From: Chrysomallon squamiferum
Taxonomy: Eukaryota > Animalia > Mollusca
NCBI GenBank assembly: GCA_012295275.1
Contig: CM022678.1
Span: 12,586,001 to 12,650,000 of the forward strand
Length of the DNA stretch: 64,000 bases
Direction of reading: 5' to 3'
Shown here: piece by piece, positions 14,999 to 64,000 of the stretch
How the letters are laid out: each line of letters starts with the position of its first letter
Position numbering within the stretch: position 1 is the stretch's first letter
The notes under the pieces: generated by a model
Databases searched by the model: none
What the model was told of the DNA's origin: nothing
The model's input: the letters and a program-made list of their open reading frames with translations, nothing else
Program-made: the position numbers and the translations under genes

Positions 14999-15377
14999 TC
15001 ACACAACCTTTTTATTCCTGACTACTGTTTTGCTGATACATGATCCAAGATGTTTTATTTCTTCATTGTCACTGAATTCATCACAATCTTTAATTATTTC
15101 TGAGGTTTTCATTTGCCATTCAGCATCAGATTCCTCATCTGACTGAGAACTTTCTCTGTTGTGTTGATGGAAAACATGAACAGCTGGTTCATCTTTCTGT
15201 GTAGAAACATTCTTTTCAGTTCCATCAGCTGAGAGAGGAATTATCTTTACATTTGGTTTAGCTGCACCATCTGACTGGCTGAGGTCAGGTCCAACATGGG
15301 TGTAAGTGTTCAGCCCAGCTTCATCATCAGGTCTAAGCAAGAAACAGTCTTCAAGCTTTTCTTTTATACCTGTGATG

Positions 15378-15444
<67 letters not shown>

Positions 15445-17330
15445 TCAACAATAATAATAATAATAATAACGTCAACAATAATAATATTGATTTACATAAT
15501 TGAACTTTCATTATTTCAAATAAAAATAATGATGAATTGAAATTGCTAAATAATACAAGTGTGTTTCTGCATCAAAATATGTATAAATTGAATGAAATGA
15601 TTACACACCTTTTAATTTGTTCAGCATCTCCTTTGCCGTAATTTTTTCACCAGACACTTTCTTTATTGATAAGACAACTTCGTGTATTTCACGAATGTTT
15701 TGACGATACTCTCATCTAGTTATAATCTTTGTTACCATCTCCTCCAGTCCCTCCTCCATTTCAAAAGCTCCTCCTCCTCACTATCATCCTGTTCATTTTC
15801 TGTTTCATCCAGTTCCTTCTTATTATCATCCTGTTCATTCTCTGTTTCATCCAGTTCCTTCTTATTATCATCCTGTTCATTCTCTGTTTCATCCAGTTCC
15901 TTCTTGTTATCATCCTGTTCATTCTCTGTTTCATCCAGTTCCTTCTTATTATCATCCTGTTCATTCTCTGTTTCATCCAGTTCCTTCTTATTATCATCCT
16001 GTTCATTCTCTGTTTCATCCAGTTCCTTCTTGTTATCATCCTGTTCATTCTCTGTGTCATCCATTTCCTTCTTATTTTCATCCTGTTATTTCTTACTATT
16101 AATCTGTTCCTTCTGACTATCATCCTGTTCATTCTGTCTATCTTCCATGTCCTTCTGTCTACCGACCAAGGCCTTTTTACTATCATACAGTTCTTTATGA
16201 CTATTATCCAGATCATTTTGAAACTGTTGATTTGAACTGATCATCACAAGTGGGTGTGTCTGGGTATTCTCCACTTTCTCATGGTGAAAGGTTTTGTCCT
16301 GTAGGTGCTACTGACCCACCAGCTAGAAAGATCTGGATAACAGTTGAGTTAGATGCATCAGTTGTGTTAAATCTGTCAGTTGATACAGGACTATGAATAT
16401 CAGTGGAATTGCCAGTGTCAGGGCTAATGGCAGCACTGAAATATCTGAGAGGGTTCCAAATGTCCATTAAGCTGACTGTGTTTTGACTGCAGCTGTGACC
16501 AGAATTCCCATCAGCCCTGGGAATAGCTCTGTTAAACTTAAAATCCAAGTCCACATCCTTTGTCTTTGATACCATCTTCTGGCTGTTCAGTACCAGGTTT
16601 AGCTCTCTTGGGTTCTGTAATAAACAAATTGAAGTAAAGACAATGTAGTGAAAGGAATTGTTTGTTTATCCAATCCAGAACACTTAGTGTAAATATGTTA
16701 TTGTCCTTCCCTTGTAAAATATAAACTCATTTCTGTAGATAAAATTACAGTTTTATTTTTTCCTGTGCAGATAACAATCTTTATTATATAATAAGTTTTA
16801 TTAACTGGACAATTATCATCACAGATGAGCACCATATTTAATGTGTTTCACTCTCACAACTTTTCAGAAATTTTGTTCTTCATTTATAAAAATATATGTT
16901 TCACTGATATCTCCACTGAACTAATTAGTGAAAACGTAAGTTTAATTTGTCCGAATTTTTCGTGTAATGCAACCATCTATTTGCTTCTTGTTCACTCAAA
17001 AAACTATGTGTGTCTGTGTGTATGTTTGTGTGTGTATATATGTGTGAATGAATGAGAGAAAAAGAGAGAGAGAGAAGAAAAACACAAATACAAAAATTAG
17101 GCAATAAAATATATAATAATAAATTAAAATAATAAAAGAATAAAAAGATCATGTGGATTAATCAAGATGTGAACAAGAATATGATACTGTTAATTACAAA
17201 TTTTACCTCTTTTGAAAAGCACACTGGAATCTGTGTCCAGGACTGGTCTGAAGAGTTTACTTAGAGAGTTATCTTTCTTGATATAATCAACATTTCTTCT
17301 CTCTTCAGAGTGCTTTTCTTCCATATTTAT
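14999..17330 (-). pseudogene. Disabled multi-exon gene encoding an acidic coiled-coil protein of unknown family
   Basis: Exon-like blocks 17207-17330, 15609-16614 and 14999-15369 have GT/AG ends. The 15609/15369 junction splices in frame (...AKEMLNKLK-G-IKEKLEDCFLLRPDD). Lesions: frame break near 16280, in-frame TAA at 16086-16088, frameshift near 15765, TGA at 15712-15714. Confidence 0.7.
15780..16150 (-). repeat. 42-bp (two-heptad) coding minisatellite, ETENEQDDNKKELD, ~7 near-perfect copies plus degenerate units
   Basis: Visible in the DNA and in ORF 15732-16064. Confidence 0.93.
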
Positions 17331-30425: not shown

Positions 30426-33400
30426 GTTTCTTTTTTTAACTGTTCTGTGGTACTAAATGCTTTACTATGTTTTATATATATATATATATATATTTTAAAA
30501 ATTACATTTTACTTTAAAATACAGTTTATTCATTAAAAACATGAAAAAACACACATTTCAAAAAACAAAAATGTATATCAACTCCAAATGAAAATACCAA
30601 TTTACTTAGAACAAACATAGGAACATTTTCATTTGGTATTACATAAAGTAGAAAACAAAAAAACAACTTTTACATAACATTATTATACTACTTTACTTAA
30701 TATGAACATAGTAAATTTTTAATAATGCAGTCCTTATATGAATACCATATATTTGATAAAAATATTTGTACAGAAATAGCACAATACCCAGCACAATAAC
30801 AATATCTGAATAGAAACATTTTATAGTATCTAGATACACACCAGATACACAGCAATGTAGTTATACTGGATTTAATTCTTACATTGGATTTAATTCTTCA
30901 TCACAATGAATTAGTTCACAAATTTTACTTTGAAAATGTGGTCTGGCTCATGTATCAGTGAATTATGCTTTTGAATTGAAAAATTAAAACTGTTCACAGT
31001 ATTTAACACAATTAAATACATGTCACAACATTATATCAAAAATAAGCGCAACTGAAGCAGTTCAAATTATATCGGAAATCAATGCTATTTCAGCATGAAT
31101 TAGAAAATAATAAACAAAATTTAGATTTCTTCACAACAATTATTCTGTTTATTATGGACACAAGTTTATGCAAAAATGCTATTTCTGCACAACTTTGAAA
31201 TTATTCGCACTAGTTGATCTTCCATTTAAAGTGACAGTCTGTGTATATAATGTACTAAATTGGAAAGTCGAGAGTTTCATATAAAAAATTATTTATATAT
31301 ATACTATCTTTAGCACTGTGCTCCAATAAATACAAAACAATTTCCTTTGTGTTACATTAAAATCTGCAACTCTTAGCTTTGTCAAGAGGGGTTTCACCTA
31401 GACCATTTTTAATATTTACATCAAAACCTTTTTCAATCAGTGCTGCCACAATTTCTACATTTCCATGTTCAGCTGCTAGATGTAAAACAGAATTATTATC
31501 ATTGTCTGTTAAATTAGGATCAGCTCCTTGTTCCAGTAAATACCAAAATATTTTGTAATGGTGACACTTAACAGCTGTAAAAAGAGGAGTTTCACCTTGC
31601 CTGTTCTTAATGTTTACATCAACACCTTTTTCAATCAATGCTGTCACAATTTCTACATTTCCCTGTTTAGCTGCTAGATGTAAAACAGAATTGTCATCAT
31701 TGTCTGTTAAATAAGGATCAGCTCCATGTTCCAGTAAATAAAAAACTGTTTTGTTATTACCAGAGTACAAAGCTGGATGTTTGTGAAAATGGTATTTGTA
31801 GCAATTCTGAGCTATCAGGAGAGGAGTCTCACCTAGACCATTTTTAATGTTTACATCAACACCTTGTTCAATCAGTGCTGCCACAATTTCTACATTTCCT
31901 TCTTCAGCTGCTAGGTGTAAAACAGAATTATTATCATTGTCAGTTAAATTGGGATCAGCTCCTTGTTCCAGTAAATACCAAAATATTTTGTAATGGTGAC
32001 ACTTAACAGCTGTAAAAAGAGGAGTTTCACCTTGCCTGTTCTTAATGTTTACATCAAAACCTTTTTCAATCAATGCTGTCACAATTTCTACATTTCCCTG
32101 TTTAGCTGCTAGACGTAAAACAGAATTGTCATCATTGTCTGTTAAATTAGGATCAGCTCCATGTTCCAGTAAATAAAAAACTGTTTTGTTATTACCAGAG
32201 TACAAAGCTGGATGTTTGTGAAAATGGTATTTGTAGCAATTCTGAGCTATCAGGAGAGGAGTCTCACCTAGACCATTTTTAATGTTTACATCAACACCTT
32301 GTTCAATCAGTGCTGCCACAATTTCTACATTTCCTTCTTCAGCTGCTAGGTGTAAAACAGAATTATTATCATTGTCAGTTAAATTGGGATCAGCTCCTTG
32401 TTCCAGTAAATACCAAAATATTTTGTAATGGTGACACTTAACAGCTGTAAAAAGAGGAGTTTCACCTTGCCTGTTCTTAATGTTTACATCAAAACCTTTT
32501 TCAATCAATGCTGTCACAATTTCTACATTTCCCTGTTTAGCTGCTAGGCGTAAAACAGAATTGTCATCATTGTCTGTTAAATTAGGATCAGCTCCATGTT
32601 CCAGTAAATAAAAAACTGTTTTGTTATTACCAGAGTACAAAGCTGGATGTTTGTGAAAATGGTATTTGTAGCAATTCTGAGCTATCAGGAGAGGAGTCTC
32701 ACCTAGACCATTTTTAATGTTTACATCAACACCTTGTTCAATCAGTGATGTCACAATTTCTACATTTCCTTCTTCAGCTGCTAGGTGTAAAACAGAATTA
32801 TTATCATTGTCAGTTAAATTGGGATCAGCTCCTTGTTCCAGTAAATACCAAAATATTTTGTAATGGTGACACTTAACAGCTGTAAAAAGAGGAGTTTCAC
32901 CTTGCCTGTTCTTAACGTTTACATGGACACCTTTAGAAATCAGTGCTCTCACAATTTCTACATTTCCCTGTTTAGCTGCTAGATGTAAAACAGAATTGTT
33001 ATAATGGTCTGTTAAATTAGGATAGGCTCCTTGTTTTAGTAAATATAAAGCTATTTCTGATCTGTTATACTGCAAAGATACACGAAGAGGAGTTTTCCCT
33101 TCAATGTTAATTGCATTTACTTCACACCCCTTTTTTGTTACTTCTTCCACCACACTTATGTCAATTTTAGATGCTATGTGCAATGCTGAATTTTGTTGTT
33201 TATCCATTATAGTGGTATCAGCACCATTTTCCAGTAACAACAAAGCTACTTCTTTTCTGTGTGTCACTGCTTTTAAAGCTTGATGAAGTGGAGTTTCTCT
33301 CTCACTGTTCACTGCATTAACATCAGCATTTCTCTCTATCAGTGATTTTAATATATCCAAGTCACCACGCAGAACTGATATGTGGAGAGATGTGTCTGAA

Positions 33401-36400
33401 GGCAACAATTTCAAACTAATTTTGTCATCAGACAACTGTTTGAATCGAATTTCATCTTTGAACCACTGAATCAATTTCTGATTAACAGCTACATTCACAT
33501 TAGGATCAGCTCCTTTATCAAGAAGACACTGAACAACATCAGCACTGTTAAACATCACTGCCACTTTCAGTACCTGGCTTTTTTTCCAGTTGTTCTCATC
33601 TTTATCATTACACCTCTGATCAATGAGAAAATTCACTGTATCAGCAACTCCCCATATTGCTGCTGCTAAAAGTACTTTATCTCTGTTCTCATCATTTAAA
33701 CAATCAGGTTTCAGTTTTACTATTTCTGTTATAAAACTTGAAGTACTCTGACAAGCAGCAATGATAGCAATGTCTTTAATTTTGTTTATTACATCAATGG
33801 TAACCAGTTTCTTAAAAAGATGGCTTACATCAACAACTTCAGAAGTCTCCAGATACATGTCACCTGTCCTGTAATATGATTTAAGTATTGCTTGTCTGTT
33901 TAACATAACCGTAATGGGCATTTCCTTGGAATTTATTTTAAGTCTTACATGTCCATGGAACCTGACCAATAATAGCGTAACAGCTTTTTCCTTGATTTTA
34001 CTGTTGTGTTTCTCATTTTGTATCTTGTCAGCTAACAGACATGCAATCTTCATGTTACCTGAACAAATAGAAGCAAGTAAGAGATGTGAATATTCATTCA
34101 AGTTCATCACTTTTTCAATTTCATCTCTGTGTAACAGTTCTTCGAGTATGGTATCACTGTCTGTTTTTGAACAAGCAGCTGCACTCAATGTATCAAATGT
34201 TGGAATAACACCTGATTTCAGCAACATTCTCACAACATCTTCATCACCAAACAAACAAGACATATCCAAAAGTTCTTTTAGATTTGTTAATTTCATTTTA
34301 AGCATATTTTCTGTGAAAAATCTTGACAATGTTCTTATTCCATTCACAATACATTCACTTTGAAAAGATGATGAAATTGTAAATCTTTCTTCAATTTCCA
34401 AATACCAAATGAAACTAGGATTCTCTGAATCACTGTCAAGAAGATGTGAAATATTGCTAAATATTTTATTAACAGTGTCTACATTTACAGATGATATATA
34501 AAAATATTCAGTTTGATGTTTATGTAGGTTTTGATGCAGTATTTCAGACAATTTATCATAAAAATATTTTTGCTCTACGAGATACTTCACAAACTGTTCA
34601 TCTTTCAGTGATGGATGTGAAACAATTTCTTTGGCCTCACTTGATGTCATCAAGTCAGTAAATCTGCGAGCAAGAACATCAAAGCAGTCAGGTCTAACAG
34701 TCATTGTAATGTGACTTGTGTTAGACACTCCAGGCGTCACAACATATTCTAACAACATGGAGACAGGACACACTTCCAGGAACTCTGCTGCTTTCTTTGG
34801 AACCTCTGATGAAAACATCAGAAACAAAGAGTCAAACACTGACTGGTGAATAAATGTGTATTTGTTGTCACAACACTTCAAATAGGTACCACACATTACA
34901 TCAGCTGTTTTCTTTATATCTCTGAGATCAATGTCTTTTACACTCTGACAGACTCGCTCTAGCAGTCTTATTAATTTCATTATGTCACTGTCAGTGTCAT
35001 TTTCAAATGGATCCAATGAATCGATGCTGAGACTGCCTTGCTGAAACATGATCAGCAGCAGAACCAGGTAATTGATCTGTAAAGTTTCATTTTTCAAATT
35101 TTCCAGCTCTTGTCGGAGATATTCTACAGGTTTCTCAAAAAACTTAACTCCTCTTTTTTGTGCATCACTTGAATGAACATAATACACACACATCTGAGGA
35201 AATCCTAATGCTGTACATGAACAGCAAATGACAGTCTCTTTATCAATTTCATTCAGTGAAACATTCTTTTGTAGGAGATAGTTGTTTAGAATTGTTTTCT
35301 TTTCATCGTAATTCAGACAACATTCATCACTCTGCAGGTCAAGGAGATGATTCTCATTAAACAGATCAAATTCCTTCAGATTGCCTATAACTTCTGTAAA
35401 TATTTGTTTTCTTAAAGAAATAATACACATCATATGCCGATTCTGAACAAGACTCCACATCTTTGGAAACAGCCATTTCCAAGATGACACAAAATCTAAT
35501 ACAAGATTTGTCTTACCAAATATATCATCAATGAGAACAATACATGTTTTATATGGAGATAGAGGGATGTCATTGAAATCAGAGTGATGATGAACGGTGT
35601 AGAATTCTTTTTTTTCTTCTTTCTCCATCTGTTTAATCATGTTCAAAGCTAGAGTTGTCTTTCCTGAACCTGGACTTCCTACTACAATAACGACACCATT
35701 CTTTTTCAAAAGTGCTACACCTCTTTCTTCTGCTCTTGTTTTAACATAGACTCTCCAGTCAACTGAGTTTAACAATGCCCTGGCAGACTCTGTATCACAA
35801 CCAAAAAAATTAACACCTATTATTAACATATTTTAAATATATTTTACCATTTAAATATATATAATATAGTTTTTAACTAGTCATCAGATGTGAATTGTTT
35901 AAAATAAAAGAGCATAATTTTTGTCATAATTTTCTTTCATCAGAATTTAATGACGATGCTAAGATGTCACAATTTTAGATGGTGTAAAAGTAGCATGATG
36001 ATTATCTTCTTATAAATTAACATCTTTCAGAAGTGAAAAAAAAATTAAAAAAATAAAATAATACCTTTGATACTGGATTCTTGTCCATCAATCTTTGCTG
36101 AAATAATATAAAATTAAAGTTTATAATTTAGATTTCAGTAAAAAAGAGAATGATTAAAGTGATCTTATAGTTACTCTGTACTTTATTCATGGAACAGTCA
36201 ATATATAACATTATTATTATTATATCTTTATCTATTTTACTGCAATTATTAAAACTACTATTGTTACTTAGTTTTTGTTCATGTTGTTATTATTATTATG
36301 TTCTTTGTATTATAGTCTTTGTACTGTATTTCAGTAGTTGCAAGTGATAATAACAACAGATACATTGGCTTGTTTAATTTATTCGGAATTATCTTAATAA

Positions 36401-36900: not shown

Positions 36901-38353
36901 AAAAACAAAGGTGAGAATAAATGTAATTGCAGAGAATAGCAGATCACATCTGGCTAGTGGGCTTTGTATTCTGGGCAACATTAATGGGTATCAAGAATTT
37001 TAGTTAGTGTGTAATTTAATGAAAAATAAGTAGTTTTGTCATGGTAGAAGTTAGCTATGTAGTTACTAAGAAGTGTGAAATGTTATATGTTATATTACTA
37101 TTAGTAACATTGATAATTCTACTAAGTATTTCTTCTACAGGCTGTTTTTAATCTGTCATTCCCGTTTAGCATTTGGACACATATTTTCACATTTATGACC
37201 CTCCTGCAATCAGCACAAGAACACGTTGTTTAATTCTCTAATATAAAATTCCTGAATGTTTCAATAAGTTATTGGTTGGGTATTCTATTGCAGGCTACTT
37301 ATTAATATTTAGAGGATTTTTAACAAACTTTTTCTTGTGATGACATTGTGAGATCAATACAGTGGTACCTTGATGTACGAGTTTAATTTGTTCCATGACC
37401 GAGCTCGTAATTCAATTTTGCTCAAATGTCAAATCTATTTTCCCAACTGAAATTAACTGAAATACCATTAGTCCATTCCAGCCCTTAAAAAAACCACCCC
37501 TATTTTTTTTTGGTAATGTGTTTTTAAATAAGAAAAAAAAAAATTGTATTTATAAATAACAAATAATATGAAATAAAATGTAAAGAAATAAATTGGTTTT
37601 GTAAAGTATATTTATCTTGGCGATCAGACAAATTATTTTAACGCCTTTGTCTGGAGTTACAGCCTTTATTGACTCCTTCTCATACTTCCTAGACAGGACA
37701 ATTACATGCACACCTTGCTCATGTCTTTCTATGAATTCAAGCATTAATTCAATGGACGTCAACTGCTGCTTCTTCTCAGCACCGTCTGAAGCTCGCTCTT
37801 AACTTGGATTTTGGCTCTTAACTCAAAGCAAAAAATCAACCAGGCAACTGTTCTTAACTCGAAAATCTCATAAGCTGGAATACTCATAAGTTGATGTATT
37901 GCTGTATTAAAAACTGCTACAACTTAGTCAATATAACATGGATATATCTTGGAAAGGATATTGCACGTGAATATGGACTTGTCTCCTTAGCCAGATTGGG
38001 TCACATGTGTGCAGCCTGTCAGTGTATGACAGGAAAATACTAATGAATGCTTTTATGTGTATTCTGTTATCTTATAAACAAGTAGAGAAAAAGAAAATGT
38101 TTTTAACTTACTGATTTCACAGTTATCTCCTATCTGAAAATTATTACAATCAGTAATATTTGTATTACTGATTGAACCTAGTTGTAGTATAACAGGACCT
38201 GTGAAACACAATTTTTTAAATTTACCTCTCATAAGCAGAAGAATATTAAAAAGTTTGTGTCTGCAGTATTAATACAATCTGTTATTTGTTAAAAGTATTA
38301 TATATGACAATATATATTTAAAATGTGTTTAACTGATTATGTGTGTATATATG

Positions 38354-38442
<89 letters not shown>

Positions 38443-39671
38443 CTTTACAGTATTAAAATGTATAACAGTAAATACAAGAATAATTATATGATGAAGTATC
38501 CAAACAGTAACTAGTGTGTATTTTGCTTTACTGTTTTCATCTGTGAAACAAAAAGGCTATAAAGACTTTAAACTGTTAATTCATTATCAATATAAATTTA
38601 AACAGTGTCAATTCACTAATGCCTAAGTTGGAACTAAACAATATATTGAAACAGTGTATTGTTCCAAATGTAAATGGTATAATTGTCAGTTTAGAATTTA
38701 CCATTAATAAAGTAAACAGCATATTGATATAGTCTACTAGTACAAATATAAAAATAATGTTGACTCTTTATAATTTCCTATCAAAAAAGTAAACAGTATA
38801 TTGAAATACTGTGTGTATTACCACGACTGCTCAACTCAGGTAGTTGTAAATGATGTTGTACTGTATGTGCGATGTCAAAGGAAGACTGAGATGTGATGCC
38901 AGATGGACAAACACTTGTCTTATTGTCTAAGAGAGAAACAGCTGTGATGGTGTCTGTGGATGAAACAGCTGTGGTGTTAGAAGAAATTTCTGAACTCTCG
39001 TTTTTGTTATGCATCCTGGCTGAGCTGTAAAAAATAATAGAGTAATTTTTTATATAGAAGGAAGAAACAAAATGTTTTATTTACTTATTTTATTTACTGT
39101 TATATGGGATCATACATAAGATTTAGAAATAGTTAGATAACAAAAGAAACCCACTGCTGTCACTTCACAGTCTACTCTTTCTTATTCAGTGATGTTTCAT
39201 TTACACCTACCCACAGACAGTACATACTATTTCATAAACACTGCTAAAACTAAAACAGCTCAAGATTCCATCAGGAGGCATTGATCCAAATATCTACTAC
39301 ACCTTGCACACATTACTAGAGACCTATATCTAGTAACTTGTATTAATACTAGCACTGCCTTATAGACTGTATTATCAACTTTTGTTCAATAAATATATGC
39401 CTTGAACATTTTTTCAAAAAAGTAATCAAATAAAAAAGATTTAACAGATGTCCTAATTTTTAAATTGAGGTGTTAGATAATGTTATTTAGAAATACTCAT
39501 GAAAGTATGTGTCACACTACTGTTAATGGAAAATCTTAGTTGTAATAATTACCTCGTTTTGGATCTGTTCTTTTTCATCTTTTTAGGGGGTGGTGATGGG
39601 TTGACTGGGGCAGATTCTGATTCTGGGTTGCTGAGTTTCTCAGCTATTCTGCTGCTTTGCTGAATAGACAT
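31357..39671 (-). CDS. NLR-like STAND NTPase (nSTAND3-type) with ankyrin repeats, N-terminal NLS and RHIM-like motif; ~1624 aa; copy A
   Basis: Exons 39553-39671 (ATG), 38822-39024, optional 38532-38540, 38112-38198, 36065-36097 and 31357-35789 are all GT-AG and in frame (4875 nt without the 9-nt exon). Motifs: Walker A GSPGSGKT, Walker B IVLIDDIFGK, sensor IISLRKQIF, GFP motif, then ~20 ankyrin repeats. The ORF-track start at 35829 lies in an intron. Confidence 0.88.
31388..32998 (-). repeat. 435-bp (145-aa, four-ankyrin) coding tandem repeat, ~3.6 near-identical copies
   Basis: Anchor ctgttcttaa(t/c)gtttacat has its cttaa at 31606, 32041, 32476 and 32911, an exact period of 435. Confidence 0.95.
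37360..37904 (-). mobile_element. Non-autonomous pogo/Tigger element in a copy A intron
   Basis: TA-flanked, with imperfect TIRs CAGTGGTACCTTGATGTACGAG and CTCATAAGTTGATGTATTGCTG. Minus-strand remnant ASDGAEKKQQLTSIELMLEFIERHEQGVHV resembles the Tigger N-terminal HTH. Confidence 0.8.
38112..38198 (-). CDS. 87-nt phase 1-1 exon encoding a RHIM-like motif
   Basis: tgtgtttcacag|GT CCT GTT ATA CTA CAA CTA GGT...TTT CAG ATA GGA GAT AAC TGT GAA ATC A|gtaagt translates PVILQLGSISNTNITDCNNFQIGDNCEI with no stops, in frame with the neighbouring exons. Confidence 0.75.
39057..39330 (-). mobile_element. Degenerate SINE
   Basis: gaaggaag..aaatgttttattt..tttatttactgttatatgg..gaaacccactgctgtcac..ctactcttt..cccacagacag..ttgatcc resembles the reverse strand of an abundant gastropod tRNA-derived SINE (from recollection; needs a repeat-library check). 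Confidence 0.6.
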
Positions 39672-40802
39672 CGTCAACCTGAAACACACACAAACGTACT
39701 AGTGATATTCCAACTGAATCTAAACATTAATATACATGGCAAAAATCAACAGGACAGTTGTCAGAAATCACTGTAAATGACTAAAAAAATAATAATGAAA
39801 ACATTAGGTAACTAAAGTAAAATGAAATTTTATTTAATATTAACTGTTTTTAGTATCAGAGACAAAAATGAATTTTGCTTATTCAAGTCAGTATACGATA
39901 TTTTATGTAAAGGTTGAATACTGCTAAAGAAATGATTATAAGTAACAAATATAACAAGAATGGAAAGTTATTTTTAATAAAACCTGCACCCAGCTTTTGA
40001 CTAGCTTTGACAATTCATTCATATAATTTTTGATCATCAAAGTGTACAAGTCATCATCTTAGCAAAAGTCCTGTTTTTTGTATGTTATTTCCAATAAAAT
40101 ATCAATGTCTAAGCCATCAAAACATGCAAGTTATCATCTGACACTTGGTCCCAAGTAATACAAACCAGTTAACTTCTGGCTTTAAGTCATCAGTAGGTAA
40201 ATCCTCTGCAGCTACTGTTATGTACATACACATGACTATCTCCTGCGGTTACAAAGATATATACAAATCGGTACAACAGGTATTTGGTTGTTTTTTAGCC
40301 CATTTTGGCTAATTAGCAGAAAGGGCTACTTTGGCCAACTGTAGATTGAAAAATAATTGACACAAAAGGCTGAAAATCAACAAGATTGCTAAATAAGCTT
40401 AATTTTTTCAGACCTGTATGTTTGTATGTTTGTTCACAATAACATGCTGAACATGCCAAAATCTTCAAAATGACACAGCAGAATTATTAAAAGTGCAAAC
40501 ACACTGTGGTTTCAGTTTGTGTCTTATTTAACAAATTCAACCTGTCTTGTGAAGAATTTATCAAGATTTTTCAAATGAATACCTGAATCTAACATTTTTA
40601 CTACAAAGCAGTTTAGTTTTTTTCTGCCAAGCCCCTAAAAAAAATTACCTTTTCAATTTATATACAACAGCACAACTTTATTTACATAAGAAGCTTGAAT
40701 TTTCAATCTATTAAATAATTAAATAACAAGTTAAGATGGCTGTGATGTGTATACATTATATATATATATATAGATTTATGGATATATAGATATAAATGTT
40801 AC

Positions 40803-42540: not shown

Positions 42541-44639
42541 GAACATGCTAGGATAATTCGTCATTTTGCCAACTTACATTTACAAGTAGTCACTATGACT
42601 GTTTATGTGTAAGTTATCACTATGAAGACTTAGCATTACTCATCATGTCAATAAGTCATCAGAAATATCTTGGTACTGAAAGTGACAACTTACTGAGGTT
42701 TACTATATTTTTACTGAGTTACATTTATCACACTTGAATTTCAAATGTGTATGTGTGTTTCTGCTTCTGTTTGTGTGTAAATGTAACTAATTTAAACAAA
42801 CGGAACATTTCTTACAATTCAGTGAACCCATCTTTAGACATTAGCTGCTATATGTTAAACCAGATGTCTGTCACTGACCATACAACTCTTCTTTCCTGTC
42901 AACAGAACAATACAAAATTTATATTACTGATTTACCTTGCATCTTAAAATAATATTGTCAAGTAATACCTTCTTTTATTATTTAACCACAATCTTAATAA
43001 AAAAATAAAATAAAAGAAGAATAATTAAGCACAAAGAGGAAAAAATAATAAAATTAAAAATTAATGTTATAACTGCCGTTTTTCAAAGTATCAGAAATTA
43101 TTAACGCACTTATTGATGCTTAAAAGAGAATTTTATTGATTATCAATATACATGAATCTGGTTAGTTTACAAAATAAAATTTTATGAATCAAATACAATA
43201 CAGTAAAAAGTCATGAATTTTTAACAAAAACCAATCAGCAATATTTATTAGTGTAATTGTTTCAGTCACATGACAGTTTTATATGAACACACGGTATTGA
43301 GATAGCATGGCTACCTCGGTTTTGACATGAAAAAAAATAGATGATTTTACAAGAATGACATCCGAAAGTGGATGAATAACCATTTCAAATCTGAACATGG
43401 TGAAAACAAAAATATTTAATAAAATATTGAGTGAATATCTGCTGTCATCCGAGGACAAATTTAAAATTAACAACAGAAATAGAGATGAATTCACATTTAT
43501 AAATAATTTAATGAATTACTCATTATCTCCATTTGCTGTTGTTTATACTAACACTGACTGCAGAATCATCTATGTACACTGATGCATTACTCTCAAAACA
43601 TTTACTTACTCACTTTAACCCTCCATTAGATTCTTGCTGTTGTATGTTAAACCAGTTGTCCAAAACTGATCATATAACACTTCAGGCCTGCCAACAGAAT
43701 AACACAAAACAGATGTTTTCAAATTTGTTTGATTTACGTGTCAATATTCATTTAGAAAATAGAATAAAAGAAAAACAAAATATAATACAATTAAGAACAT
43801 TTTGTTTTGTTCAACCACAACAAAATCCAAACTCTCAAAAACTGAGTTATAATTAGAAGAGACAGGATGAAATCTTGGAAGTTTTTTCTTATCAAAATTG
43901 TTGTGACATCTTATTTCCCTGATGAAATAATTTCATCTTTTCTTACACAGAATTTCAGTTAATAAACAGAAAATTTGTCACAAACAGTTATTACAGATTT
44001 TATTTTGCCAAAAAATCCAGATACCTAAATAGCAAGAAAATTAAACGAACTAGAGGCCAAATAAATCAAATTAACTGTAGAAATACAATTCACTTGTGAG
44101 TACTGTTTTGGTACAGAGTCATCTAGTTTATGTACCTGTATACTGTTTTGTTATTCTGTAAGATTTGAGCGGGCAATTGAGGTTTGTAGTGTGTGGTAAT
44201 TGATTATCTCATTAAACTTGTTTTATCACCCAACCCATTATAACACCAATATTAGCTGAAAACCAATGTCAGCATTACAAAGAATTTTGAAAGTACATAT
44301 AGGCAAGATGTGATGACTTAGATAAATATTTTTGGGCACTTCATGAAAAATGTGTTTACTCTGACAAATTATGTATTTGCATACAGTGTTCAGTTATGTC
44401 TTTGAACGGTTAACTGCTGGTTTAGGTACTGAAAGACCATTTTGAAAACAGTTCATTTTAAAAAAAAACCCAATAAATTGCAGTTATTTAAAATAATATA
44501 TATATAAACTTGCTTTGATTTAGAGTGCGAACAAAAATGTATCTTTGCAGATATCTAAATCAACACAGAATACAATGTGTTTGTGTTTGATTTGTAAACA
44601 AACAGCCTAGATATTAGAATCGCTAGACAATGGATCATT

Positions 44640-45904
44640 ATCTAGGTATGTGCATTACTGCCGGAACTGCGTCCGCCATTTTCTGCTATATCCGTGTGAC
44701 CTGGATCTCCCCAATGGCGAGTGGTGTCTCTGCATAAATTGCTTCTCATTAGTCAGGGGCTGGGAGTTTCAGTGATCCCTGATGGTATAATTAGTGGGAA
44801 ATTCCCGTATCCTCACTTGTTTTTTGAATTTTTCAGTTCGGTCAATTGGTTCGTTTCGGAGGAGAGTTCAAAAAAAAAGATTGTATTCAACACATTAAAA
44901 TCGGTCGTTTTCGATATCGGAGGATAATCTAAGGTAGATTGAGGCGAAGAACAATATTTAATTTTATTATATGTGAATTTATATTGAAATATGATATAGC
45001 TGAGAAAAGTTATTAACCCCAGAAAGACAAGCTGTAAAATCGAAATGGCTTCAAAATCAAACATGGCGGATGAAAATTCGAGTGAAACTGAAGCGATTTC
45101 TACCCTTGATTTCAGCTATGTTTGATAAATGAGTGATAGAACAGATTGTGATGCTGTATAAATATATGACTGTACTCTATGTCACACTTTTATTACCCGA
45201 TGGATTGTAAATAGTGGACGATTGTGGATTTTGCGAGTGCCTTCAAGCCAATCGGTATGAACTAATTTTGAAATTTAGTATTCATTATTATTATGTTGGC
45301 CTTCTTTTCGGGATGCCTAACTTGAAGTGGAAAAGAAAATCCCCCAATCCAAGGACTGGTATAGCCAAGCAACACTTGGAAGAGAACTTTTCCAATGGAA
45401 TTCCAGTTTCTTTGGCGAATTTCTTAAATGGTCACGTATTCAATATTGTTTATTTTTGTCTTTCGCTGCGAAAAAAGCCGTTCGAAGACCTTTAGAGAAC
45501 TTCAATCATATATCCCTAATAATATTACTGGTCATCAGAGAAATACAGTTTTGAATTATATTACATCACAAATTCAGAAACTTGTTGACAACACTCTGAA
45601 CAAGTTCAAGAAACTCAGTGACGCTGTGGAATTCAGTATGTTTGATTCCATTTGTCACGAAAGTTTTGATCAGCTGAACCTGACCAGTACTATTTCCACA
45701 GTTATGTCATGTGTTATCCAGCCAGTGGAAGTCCCTCAGGCTGATGAAGAAAATGCCACTGTTCTTCCCAGTACCAAGCCTGTTGCTGTGTGCCCTCTGA
45801 AAACCAGGCAGATAAGAAAATGCCATAACTGTGAGAGATATCATAAAAGTTTGCAATTTGCCAAACAAAGTGAGAAACAGGATCTCTTAAAATGTCAGAA
45901 TTAA
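44640..45904 (+). other. Comparatively CpG-rich insertion with a frameshifted ORF, probably transposon-derived
   Basis: Overlapping ORFs 45214-45495 and 45428-45904 end in CxxC (KCHNCERYH) and lack introns; family not recognised. Confidence 0.3.
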
Positions 45905-46354
45905 AATCTGCTGTATTATTAATTATTTATATTTCACTTTTAACAGCTTGAATTGAGAGAACTAGTTACCATCTATCTTCAGTCCAAATTTCACTAATAA
46001 AATTTGGTTATTAAGAAAGTTACATGCATTTTAGTGAAAAACAATAGGATTTTGGTTACGCCATTGTAATGCAAATGCAGTAAATAATAGAACAATTAAT
46101 TAGTGTTAATTGAAAACATTAAAATGCTGTAGCTTCCTTAATACTCAACAGAATCACATGTTTGTTGTTTTTTACAGGGTTTTTAGAGTTCTTTTCAGCA
46201 ATGTTATTTATGTTGAATTTGGTGGTGACTGAATTTTTTGTCCACATACCTTCATTATCATCACAGATTGCCATTTATATGGTTTTAAACTCCCAAATCA
46301 TTCGAGGCAGTTATGGAATGGAAATACTATTAAATTATTTTTTCTATCATTTGT

Positions 46355-58896: not shown

Positions 58897-61800
58897 TTAT
58901 GTTTTACTATCCTTATAAGAAATAAGAAAATTTTCTTTTTGTGACAAAGAAGTATTTCTATTAGCTGTGTCAACAGGAGTTTGACCCCTGGAATTAATAA
59001 CAAATATATCAGCACCTTTATCAATCAATGCGCTCACAATTTTCTCACAATCATATTCAACTGCTATGTGTAGAATAGAATTGTTATCATCGTCTGTTAC
59101 ATTAGGATTAGCTCCATGATCCAGTAAAAACAAAACTAATGTCATAATATAAGGGTACACACTTTCATAAGTGGAACCAGAATGTTTTACGTTATTCATG
59201 GCTAAAAGAAGAGCAGTTTCACCTTGAGAGTTCTTGGCATTTACATCAACATGCTTTTCAATCAGTTCTTTTACAATATCTAGATATAAACATTTAGCTG
59301 CTAAGTGTAAAACAGAATTGTTAACTTTGTCTGTTGACTTGGGATCAGCTCCTTCTTTTAGTAAATATAAAGCTACTTTGTTCTTATTAGAGTTCACAGC
59401 TGTAATAAGAGGAGATTCACCGTTACCGTTTTTAATGTTTACTTCAAAACCACCTTCAATTAGTGCTGTCACAATTTCCATATTTCCATGTTTGGCTGCT
59501 ATGTGTAAAGCAGTATTGTTATATTTGTCTGTTAAATTATGATCAACTCCACATTCCAGTAAATACAAAACTACTTTGTTATGTCTACAGTTAACAGCTG
59601 TCAAAAAAGGTGTTTCACCTTTGCAGTTTTTGATATTTACATGAACACATTTTTCAATCAATGTTGTCATTATTTCCATATTTCCATGTTCAGCTGCTAG
59701 ATGTAAAGCAGAATTTTTATCATTGTCTGTTAAATTAGGATCAGCTCCATGTTCTAGTAAATGAAAAGCTGTTTTGTTATTATAAGAGTACACAGCTGGA
59801 AGTTTGTAAAAATCATATTTGTTGTTATTAAGAACTGTAAGAAGAGGTGTTTCACCTTTACTGTTTTTAGTATTTATATCAAAACCTTTTTCAATCAGTG
59901 TTGTTACAATTTCTGTTTTTCCACATTTAGCTGCTAAGTGTAAAACAGAAATGTCTGTTAAATCAGGATCATCTCCTTGTTTTAGTAAACTAGCATCTCT
60001 CTTTATCAGTAATTTTAACTTATCTACATTATTATGCAGATCTGATACCTGGAGAGATGTGTCTGAAGGCAGCAATTCAAACAGATGGAATCTAGTTTTG
60101 TCTTCATACAACTGAATCAACTTCTTGCTAACTGCTACATTCACATTAGGATCAGCTCCTTTATCAAGAAGACACTGAACAACATCAGCACTGTTAAACA
60201 TCACTGCCACTTTCAGTACCTGGCTTTTTTTCCAGTTGTTCTCATCTTTATCATTACACCTCTGATCAATGAGAAAATTCACTGTATCAGCAACTCCCCA
60301 TATTGCTGCTGCTAAAAGTACTTTATCTCTGTTCTCATCATTTAAACAATCAGGTTTCAGTTTTACTATTTCTGTTATAAAACTTGAAGTACTCTGACAA
60401 GCAGCAATGATAGCAATGTCTTTAATTTTGTTTATTATATCAATGGTAACCAGTTTCTTAAAAAGATGGCTTCCATCAACAACTTCAGAAGTTTCAAAAT
60501 ATGTGTGACTTGCCTTATAACTTGGGTTAAGTTTTACTTGTCTATGATACCTAACCAATAACAGCTTAATGGCTTTTTCCTTGATTTTACTGTTGTGTTT
60601 CTTATTTTGTATCATGTCAGCTAACAGACATGCAATCGTCATGTTACCTGAACAAATAGAAGCAAGTAAGAGATGTGAATATTCATTCAAGTTCATCACT
60701 TTTTCAATTTCAATTCTGTGTAATAGTTCTTCGAGTATGGTATCACTGTCTGTTTTTGAACAAGCAGCTGCACTCAATGAATCAAATGTTGGAATAATAC
60801 CTGATTTTAGCAACATTCTCACAACATCTTCATCACCAAACAAACAAGACATATCCAAAAGTTCTTTTAGATTTGTTAATTTCATTTTAAGCATATTTTC
60901 TGTGAAAAATCTTGACAATGTTCTTATTCCATTCACAATACATTCACTTTGAAAAGATGATGAAATTGTAAATCTTTCTTCAATTTCCAAATACCAAATG
61001 AAACTAGGATTCGCTGAATAACTGTCAAGAAGATGTGAAATATTTCTAAATATTTTATTAACAGTGTCTACATTTACAGATGATATATAAAAATATTCCA
61101 TTTGATGTTTATGTAGTTTTTGATGCAGTATTTCAGACAATTTATCATTAAAGTATTTTTGCTCTATGAGATACTTCACAAACTCTTCATCTTTCAGTGA
61201 TGGATGTGAAATAATTTCTTTGGCCTCACTTGATGTCATCAAGTCAGTAAATCTGCGAGCAAGAACATCAAAGCTGTTAGGTCTAACAGTCATTGTAATG
61301 TGACTTTTGTTAGACACTCCAGGCGTCACAACATATTCTAACAACATGGAGACAGGACACACTTCCAGGAACTCTGCTGCTTTCTTTGGAAACTCTGATG
61401 AAAACATCATAAACAAAGAGTCAAACACTGACTGGTAAATAAATGTGTATTTGTTGTCAGAAAACTTCAAATAGGTGCCACACATTGCATCAGCTGTTTT
61501 CTTGATATGTGTGAGATCAGTGTTTTTTACACTCTGACAGACTTGCTCTAGCAGTCTTATTAATTTCATTATGTCACTGTCAGTGTCATTTTCAGATGAA
61601 TTCAGTGAATCAATGCTGAGACTGCCTTGTCGGAAAAAGATCAGCAGAAGAACCAGGTAATTGATTTGAGAAGATTTATCATTTTTCAAATATTCCAGTT
61701 GTTGTTTGAGACATTCTACAGGTTTCTCAAAAAACGTAACTCCTTTTTTTTGCATCACTTGAATTAACATAATACACACACACCTGAGGAAATCCTAACT

Positions 61801-64000
61801 CTGTACATGAACAGCAAATGACAGTCTCTGTATTGATTTCATTCAGTGAAACATTCTTTTGTATGAGATATTTGTTTAGAATTCTTTTCTTTTCATCGTA
61901 ATCCAGACAACATTCATCACTCTGCAGGTCTAGGAGATGATTCTCATTAAACAGATCAAATTCCTTCAGACTGTCTCTAACTTCTGTAAATATTTGTTTT
62001 CTTAAAGAAATAATACACATCATATGCCGATTCTGAACAAGACTCCACATCTTTGGAAACAGCCATTTCCAAGATGACACAAAATCTAATATAAGATTAG
62101 TCTTACCAAATATATCATCAATGAGAATAATACATGTTTTATATGGAGATAGAGGGATGTCATTGAAATCAGAGTGATGATTCACGATGTAAGATTCTGT
62201 TGTTTCTTCTTTCTCAATCTGTTTAATCATGTTCAAAGCTAGAGTTGTCTTTCCTGAACCTGGACTTCCTACTACAATAACAACACCATTCTTTTTCAAA
62301 AGTGCTACACCTCTTTCTTCTGCTCTTGTTTTAACATAGACTCTCCAGTCAAGTGAGTTTAACAATGCCCTGGCAGACTCTGTATCACAACCAAAAAAAT
62401 TAACACCTATTATTAAAGAATTTTAAATATATTTTACCATTTAAATATATATAATATAGTTTTTAACTAGTCATCAGATGTGAATTGTTTAAAATAAAAG
62501 AGCATAATTTTTGTTCATCAGAATTTAATGACAATGCTAAGATGTCACAATTTTAGATGGTGTAAAAGTGACATGATGATTATCTTCTTATAAATTAACA
62601 TCTTTCAGAAGTAAAAAAATAAAATAAAATAAAATAATACCTTTGATACTGGATGCTCGTCCATCAATCTCTGCTGAAATCATATAAAAATAAAACAAGT
62701 TTATAATTTAGATTTCAGTAAGAGAGAATGATTAAAGTGATCTTATAGTTACTCTGTACTTTATTCATGGAACAGTCAATATATAACATTATTATTATTA
62801 TTATAGCTATCTATTTTACTACAATTATTAAAACTACTATTGTTATAGTTTTTGTTCATGTTGTTATTATTATTATGTTCTTTGTACTGTATTTCAGTAG
62901 TTGCAAGTGATAATAACAACACATACATTGGCTTGTTTAATTTATTCAGATTATCTTAATAAAATCTAGTTAAGAGTTGTGATTCTTATAATTTGTGTGT
63001 GTGTGTTTGGGTGGGACGTCATAAGCGCACAAGACAAATGCGTGCCAACAAAACCATGCTAGCAATAACAATTGTTATTATTGTTATTATTATTTTAATT
63101 ATTATTTAAGAAACAGTATGCAAATCATAAACTTCAAACAGTTACAAATTATAAGCATTGCTAGGTAGTCCATGACTTCAATTTCTTCAAACTGTCCAGC
63201 AAGTGTTAGGAGGGCTGCTTTGGCTCTCACAAACATGGACATTTTTTAAATTACTGCTTGGCCAGCATTAACATGTTATGACATTTTTCATATGGGACTG
63301 GTCTGATGTGACTGCTTTGGGTTAAATTGTTTAATTTAACAACTTACAAACATTATTTCCCATATATAAAGCATCCACTGCACACAGTATGAATCAAATC
63401 TGTCATTTGTTAGCATTACTGAATAAACCAATATATATTTTAAAGTGTAAAATTCTTTACATTAAATCTCTGCATTTATGTATTGTCTATATTTGTTTGC
63501 GTGAATGTTGTTCAGGACAGTGTGTTTGACAGAAAAGTAGGCCTACTAATGAGTACTGTGATGTGTATTCTGTTATCTATTAAATGGGCAGGCAAAAGAA
63601 AATTCTCAGATTTCAACTTACTAATTAAATTTTTATTTTTTTCCTGTATCTGCTGTCACTCAGGCCAATGTTGTTGAGGTCATAAATGTCATTAATTTTA
63701 ACCATGTGCAAACAATCGTTCAGCATACCACAAAATTAGCAAGAATGAAAAATGAGTTACACAAGGATGGTTTTGCACAACCCTTTTGTGAACTAAACAA
63801 TTTCTGCAGACTTGATAGTGTGTAGACATGTACAGATGTAGATGTATGCATTACATTTGTGTTTGCTTGTGTTGGTCATACTGTTTGATGGTAAAATACT
63901 ACCAATTAATGTGACATATAGTTCTGTTATCTATCAAGTATGTTTCAGTTTTTAACTTACTGATTTCCTCAGCTTCACATCCTGATACAGTATTTCTGTT
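58897..64000 (-). CDS. NLR-like nSTAND3-type NTPase-ankyrin paralogue, copy B; 5'-partial, one frameshift
   Basis: Last exon 58897-62379 joins ORFs 61727-62365 and 58897-61779 across a frameshift in the T8 run at 61744-61751. It also has a 33-nt exon at 62641-62673 (EIDGRASSIK) and an exon from 63961 running past the window end (NRNTVSGCEAEEI). Same Walker A/B as copy A; ~11 ankyrin repeats. Confidence 0.85.

Follow-up and report, generated by a model that had tools for sequence, protein, structure and literature searches.

The window, by which we mean the whole 64-kb stretch of DNA that was analysed, carries on its minus strand a spliced gene for a predicted protein of 1635 residues: an N-terminus of 159 residues without a folded domain, an nSTAND3 NTPase domain and, C-terminal of the latter, numerous ankyrin repeats recognised by Pfam. 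A tandem paralogue, 93% identical over 2.9 kb, lies 26.6 kb away (Table 1). The motif that gives the gene its interest lies at residue 133, its FQIG tetrad at residue 139 and the Walker A motif at residue 196.

Table 1. Features of the gene, of its motif-bearing exon and of the tandem paralogue in the window.
Feature	Coordinates	Strand	Remarks
5' UTR exon	43610..43690	-	joint 43610>42895; upper coordinate approximate
Start-codon exon (ATG 42841)	42816..42895	-	in-frame TAG three codons upstream of ATG
Coding exon, P/K-rich, low complexity	39553..39678	-	RNA joints and reading frame
Coding exon, S/T-rich linker	38822..39024	-	203 nt; no Pfam family
RHIM-like coding exon	38112..38198	-	87 nt, symmetric phase 1-1; RNA joints on both sides
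Second core-like tetrad LQLG	38176..38187	-	candidate by sequence; same tetrad in fish RIPK3
Perfect 12-bp inverted repeat, 4-nt loop	38147..38174		inside the exon; pairs SISNT codons with NITDC codons
RHIM-register motif ITDCNNFQIG	38128..38157	-	FQIG tetrad at 38139-38128; aligned to RIPK RHIMs
33-nt linker exon, phase 1-1	36065..36097	-	copy in tandem paralogue at 62673-62641
Terminal exon: nSTAND3 NTPase, helical region, ankyrin array	31357..35789	-	4433 nt
nSTAND3 domain (PF20720)	35275..35748	-	E 3.9e-25; Walker A GSPGSGKT at 35679-35656
Amplified ankyrin block	31385..33056	-	435-nt unit x3.8, 96% matches
Tandem paralogue	58897..64000	-	nSTAND3/ankyrin exon, 33-nt exon, last 13 codons of upstream exon at window edge

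Gene structure and transcript evidence

The RNA evidence consists of contigs from four runs of one study, which may be the source of the window itself. The joint 38822>38198, which leads into the 87-nt exon, is present in all four runs and the joint 38112>36097, which leads out of it, in two of the four; further upstream, 39553>39024 and 42816>39678 are each found in three of the four and 43610>42895 in two, the transcript thereby reaching 43610. The exon 38198-38112 is bounded by the acceptor ...tgtgtttcacAG and the donor GTaagt, and it is in frame with 39024-38822, 36097-36065 and 35789-31357. Its coordinates, its AG/GT ends and the RNA joints thus bear out the short phase 1-1 exon with strong splice sites that had been predicted here, and the joints rule out that the exon is an untranscribed artefact. 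No exon-skipping joint 38822>36097 occurs among the RNA joints listed. The third junction proposed, 36065>35789, is absent from the same list; a repeat mask at 36034-36063 adjoins it. Since loose ends at 35791 read into paralogue-type copies of the 33-nt exon in all four runs, this joint is seen for paralogues, and we infer it for the present copy.

The encoded peptide, PVILQLGSISNTNITDCNNFQIGDNCEI, is 29 residues long with seven N/Q and three charged residues. The 118 residues ahead of it are rich in S, T, P and K, 22% hydrophobic and low in complexity, and therefore leave no room for a death fold; because the joints and the reading frame place the ATG at 42841, a death-fold exon further upstream is ruled out as well. 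The claim that the receptor has no death-fold domain is thus correct. Within the N-terminus, the stretch PPPKKMKKNR (39553-39620) resembles a nuclear localisation signal, and similar basic patches occur in several relatives.

The predicted layout of a RHIM-like motif, an nSTAND3 domain and ankyrin repeats also stands: the PF20720 match scores 88.8 bits against a cut-off of 27.2, the translation holds an intact Walker A (GSPGSGKT) and an acidic Walker B (LIDD), the Pfam ankyrins follow, and the motif exon is spliced on upstream. A search for solved structural relatives of the NTPase returned nothing beyond P-loop-level matches. The amplification of a 435-nt ankyrin unit suggests recent repeat turnover in the sensor domain; many RNA joints and variants are also seen within this block (31385-33056). 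Elsewhere in the window, the region 44800-45940 upstream of the gene is covered by RNA and has plus-strand ORFs with a weak Pfam match (E 0.016), and a separate gene is marked at 15000-16700 by ORFs on the minus strand that contain an acidic 42-nt tandem repeat.

The exon peptide compared with the RHIM

Aligned without gaps to residues 451-467 of the human RIPK3 RHIM (reference sequence from the supplement of PMC4262963), the exon peptide is identical at 8 of 17 positions as counted by eye, one of these identities being the codon at the exon junction. Both of its tetrads occur naturally: FQIG in two amphibian RIPK3 and two amphibian RIPK1 proteins, and LQLG in nine fish RIPK3 proteins, in supplementary file 8 of PMC12119088, so that both are among the tetrads that vertebrate RIPKs naturally have, in agreement with the RHIM register originally proposed. 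FQIG departs from the mammalian core (V/I)-Q-(V/I/L/C)-G at its first position, which is F, and is not among the assayed RIPK variants named in the available sections of PMC12119088. In a deep mutagenesis of RIPK3, of which part was available, the hydrophobic positions 450, 452, 458 and 460 were essential for nucleation, and G457 acted as a gatekeeper at which 15 of 19 changes raised nucleation (10.64898/2026.02.19.706818). The exon peptide has T, I, F and I at the four positions, three of them hydrophobic, and Asn in place of G457; the conserved RIPK Asn three residues after the Gly (N464) is Cys. The unstructured region that is characteristic of a RHIM is found here by composition only (S/T/P/K-rich, 22% hydrophobic, and a preceding exon without a Pfam family).

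When all six reading frames of the window are scanned with a strict pattern for the RHIM register, the only match is at this exon, against 0.07 expected from 60 shuffled windows. Of 20,000 shuffled N-termini 3 have a match, and of 20,000 shuffled exon peptides 10; these rates flatter the motif, because D and F were allowed in the pattern after the peptide had been seen. The Pfam RHIM family (PF12721), named beforehand as a check, gave a negative outcome: the exon peptide has no match at E up to 1 or 10, nor do segments from six relatives, in searches run without a positive control and with HMMER filters that drop weak matches, and 46 whole relatives have none at E 0.1 or 1e-5. Against the PDB, the exon peptide has no match at E up to 10, a short query having little power, and a profile of 11 rows, likewise short, returned at E up to 10 four chance-level matches and no RIPK fibril chains. 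The ESM Atlas gave nothing usable for residues 40-85 of the relative P0002, a protein that also carries the precomputed domain PF28177, absent from our Pfam scan; for the window peptide it gave one unnamed cluster of 54 residues at 0.78. A four-copy complex prediction came out with a very low score that is not evidence either way. Because the register and the tetrads fit but Pfam RHIM and the RIPK structures in the PDB are unmatched, the motif, judged by its sequence, is to be classed as RHIM-like and is not placed in the RHIM family.

The exon further contains a perfect inverted repeat, the sole non-simple one of its size in the window and reached in 2 of 20,000 shuffles of the exon, which may have been left by a template switch or may form an RNA hairpin.

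The segment upstream of nSTAND3 in paralogues and relatives

A 2-nt frameshift near 61745, within a run of A, splits the NTPase exon of the tandem paralogue (58897-62379) and reflects either a pseudogene or an assembly error. The upstream exon of this paralogue, truncated where the window ends, has the donor region in common with the 87-nt exon and ends in NRNTVSGCEAEEI, which lacks QIG; no FQIG stands in register in the visible end. In the intron of the paralogue the donor of the RHIM-like exon recurs twice together with the first part of the intron behind it, at 63544-63626 and 63948-63967, which suggests a duplication of an exon-intron module. Expressed paralogues are many, with up to 20 contigs differing at one site in the NTPase. 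The consensus of three contigs with loose ends in run X3 (agreement 0.76) suggests, with some uncertainty, that the exon of another expressed paralogue has a VLGNQ-type core at its end. A loose end at 36097 in run X1 was also considered as a paralogue motif and was dropped as a mixture of two contigs.

The mollusc nSTAND3-ankyrin family counts 991 representatives at E up to 0.001, of which 150 were listed. Out of 154 relatives, the motif counts cover the 79 that have at least 35 residues ahead of the NTPase, the other 75 being excluded. The nearest relatives are proteins of Gigantopelta aegis (41-46%), followed by Haliotis and Ylistrum, which makes a gastropod the likely origin of the gene. 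A FastTree phylogeny (80 rows, 386 columns) groups the window protein with seven Gigantopelta proteins (support 0.998); three of these fit a loose form of the RHIM register, and two more show other hydrophobic-Gly segments by eye.

The strict pattern occurs in one of the 79 relatives, Gigantopelta P0012, ahead of each of two NTPase units and with the tetrad VQFG (p 0.018). Both P0012 and P0122 are models with two such units and are maybe fused tandem genes. The canonical core [IV]Q[IVL]G is not enriched (2 of 79 against 1.3 expected). Ahead of nSTAND3, 13 of 79 relatives have the loose register, where shuffles give about one (p 0.002), with a pattern that was composed after reading the sequences; two of the 13, in P0009 and P0010, fall inside a DED and were removed by hand, leaving 11 of 79. 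The remaining 11 occupy about seven separate places in the tree, among gastropods and bivalves, ten of them named: Gigantopelta (3), Haliotis, Potamilus, Sinanodonta, Mizuhopecten, Solemya, Argopecten and Ylistrum. The loose pattern is also met in the larger NTPase region of 8 of 79, seven times at one conserved site. A pattern-free alignment of the peptide reached p<=0.05 in 7 of 79 relatives, with P0012 best, against 4 expected, and a de novo EM motif search of the 79 N-termini was overfitted and gave no usable motif (best site of the window protein, p 0.88). The character of the RHIM-like segment recurs in this slot among molluscs and its sequence does not. As to conservation, named beforehand as a check, a RHIM-like beta segment is found across molluscs; the exact motif is not, and the visible exon end of the paralogue is without it.

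These data bear on the possibility that the exon encodes a linker, rich in Asn and prone to beta structure, that drifts fast, or else an ancestral motif in decay, its likeness to a RHIM being partly due to chance and without a role in signalling. The poor conservation of the exact motif would fit such a linker, as would the silence of the Pfam RHIM and PDB searches, the divergent exon of the tandem paralogue, and the closest relatives P0003 and P0045, in which the register is present and the core Gly is missing. In addition, the NITDC codons form one arm of the perfect palindrome, which a template switch could produce. However, NITxC recurs in P0003, and that arm therefore predates the palindrome; the strict match recurs in P0012; the sole strict match in 64 kb is a spliced exon in the effector slot, with natural tetrads in an ungapped register; and a receptor deprived of the motif has no visible output domain. 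We consider the linker reading rather unlikely.

In 36 hand-picked relatives this slot holds HEPN_DZIP3 (9) or SAM (2), with one case apiece of caspase, Death, CARD, DED and Ig domains, and two of ten further relatives have DED-like matches there. One of the relatives, P0019, is a caspase-nSTAND3-ankyrin fusion. The loose motif is present in 0 of 18 relatives with a folded domain in the slot and in 9 of 27 without (Fisher p 0.007), a soft test in that the proteins are hand-picked and related, the two matches within DEDs were removed, and P0123 was counted as without despite its DED-like stretch. This distribution fits the rule, stated in the accessible part of PMC4262963, that invertebrate RHIMs occupy the usual position of the death fold.

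The same observations could be taken to mean that the motif is a real amyloid former acting on the receptor itself or on its paralogues, either stabilising receptor clusters or passing the signal from a sensor to a helper nSTAND3 protein with a caspase, DED or HEPN domain, and that no RIPK is involved. The many expressed paralogues, the relatives with enzymatic N-termini, the possible expressed paralogue with a VLGNQ-type core and P0123, which combines a DED-like stretch with the loose motif, are in keeping with this; a helper would nevertheless need both elements in one protein, and motif and folded effector seldom go together. Such a circuit among receptors seems to us distinctly improbable. 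Still less credible, and very unlikely in our estimation, is that the segment forms no amyloid and, as a beta hairpin or a beta-helix coil, docks on a folded partner or else holds the NTPase in check as a latch. The spacing between motif and NTPase, usually 20-75 residues, would suit this, and the best PDB matches of the family profile include, weakly (E ~4), the beta-helix protein XRP2; yet matches of this type are at chance level, the spacer varies widely in length and sequence, and a Q-hydrophobic-G core better suits a RHIM.

Probable signalling and known systems

Of the original prediction, it has held up that the exon exists and is spliced, that the protein has the architecture described and no death fold, and that the peptide is in RHIM register; the Pfam RHIM search spoke against it and conservation gave a mixed answer. 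Because a RHIM-like motif sits on an exon of its own in a receptor with no death domain, seeding of amyloid in a partner is likely, and we regard it as probable, if only just, that the nSTAND3-ankyrin protein is an intracellular immune sensor signalling by amyloid templating. STAND receptors oligomerise; no animal nSTAND3 is known to do so. The ankyrin array would bind a non-self ligand, upon which the STAND module, by analogy with STAND receptors, would oligomerise; the clustered motifs, which follow a disordered N-terminus and precede Walker A by about 50 residues, could then stack into a cross-beta nucleus. This nucleus would convert a partner with a RHIM, for which a RIPK1-like kinase of molluscs is the likeliest candidate, with NF-kB activation or cell death as the outcome. 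A partner class does exist in molluscs: the RHIM of zebra mussel RIPK1 is required for NF-kB activation in human cells, according to the accessible part of PMC12119088.

Within the 64-kb window there is no second strict match that would mark a partner gene, a search that motifs split by introns would escape, and no effector family appears in the 13 window ORFs scanned. Weak, word-based searches for proteins with the motif returned one candidate, without a match for the window peptide, and none for the P0012 motif; no effector that shares it emerged. More speculatively, and as something we lean against while keeping it in view, the whole family may use fungal-style amyloid signalling in molluscs on an Avs5-type chassis: in ankyrin sensors, RHIM-like motifs that have diversified and sit on symmetric exons would take the place of death-fold or enzyme domains, each type of motif leading to its own effector. 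Were this family-wide reading true, it would offer a tractable animal STAND receptor signalling by amyloid templating. The gene is a transcribed and fully delimited candidate with a testable module of 29 residues, from a phylum in which RIPK1 carries a functional RHIM. It also suggests how part of the large mollusc nSTAND3-ankyrin family, which is related to the bacterial Avs5 anti-phage sensors, may pass on its signal.

In the literature searched, to which most subscription journals do not belong, RHIM-like motifs in mollusc nSTAND3 proteins were not found described, nor are they in the available parts of PMC13506858, PMC12261475 and PMC8195603; none of the nSTAND3 matches listed concerns molluscs, judged by title and start of abstract, and FQIG together with RHIM gave no match. 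That STAND/NLR proteins template amyloid from receptor to effector is established for fungi and has support for bacteria, as far as the available parts of PMC7889193 and 10.1101/2020.01.06.895854 go; for animals, a prediction of 2014 in amphioxus was the only case found in the literature searched. The present gene resembles the fungal NWD2/HET-S and PP-motif NLRs and the bacterial BASS3/Bell systems described there in joining a short amyloid motif (here a candidate), a STAND NTPase and a repeat sensor, and it has the layout of an NLR amyloid signalosome, with the motif N-terminal to the NTPase and the repeats C-terminal. The PP and BASS3 motifs share with the RHIM the signature G-phi-Q-phi-G (PMC7889193, 10.1101/2020.01.06.895854, available parts), the first G of which is N here; moreover, our motif lies at residue 133, not at the extreme N-terminus as in the fungal and bacterial systems. 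In NWD2/HET-S and BASS/Bell, as far as these sources go, an effector gene with the same motif adjoins, whereas none is seen in this window.

With the RHIMs of RIPK1, RIPK3, ZBP1 and TRIF, the peptide shares the ungapped register phi-x-[ND]-C-x-x-phi-Q-phi-G-D-N; it differs from them in lacking a Pfam match, in having Thr for V450 and Cys for N464, and in being carried by a STAND receptor and not by a kinase or adaptor. The NTPase family is that of the bacterial Avs5 sensors (10.1101/2025.07.08.663546, accessible part), whose Sir2-nSTAND3-TPR/Sel1/PPR proteins have the same tripartite layout with a repeat sensor; the effector of Avs5 is an enzymatic Sir2, whereas here there is no enzyme and only a short motif. 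The gene belongs to the same family as the mollusc nSTAND3-ankyrin proteins with HEPN_DZIP3, DED, Death, CARD, caspase or SAM N-termini, from which it is set apart by having no folded N-terminal domain. The closest precedent is in the accessible part of PMC4262963 (Kajava et al. 2014), where animal RHIM proteins, notably Branchiostoma BF82280, were predicted to have an NWD2-like layout. As in our gene, an animal STAND protein there bears an N-terminal RHIM in the usual place of a death fold, by prediction only; BF82280 has a NACHT domain and is from a chordate, while the present protein has nSTAND3 and is from a mollusc. The novelty of an animal RHIM-STAND-repeat layout was therefore overstated, since a RHIM-NACHT-repeat protein had already been reported; what is new here is the nSTAND3/ankyrin chassis in molluscs for a known signalling logic.
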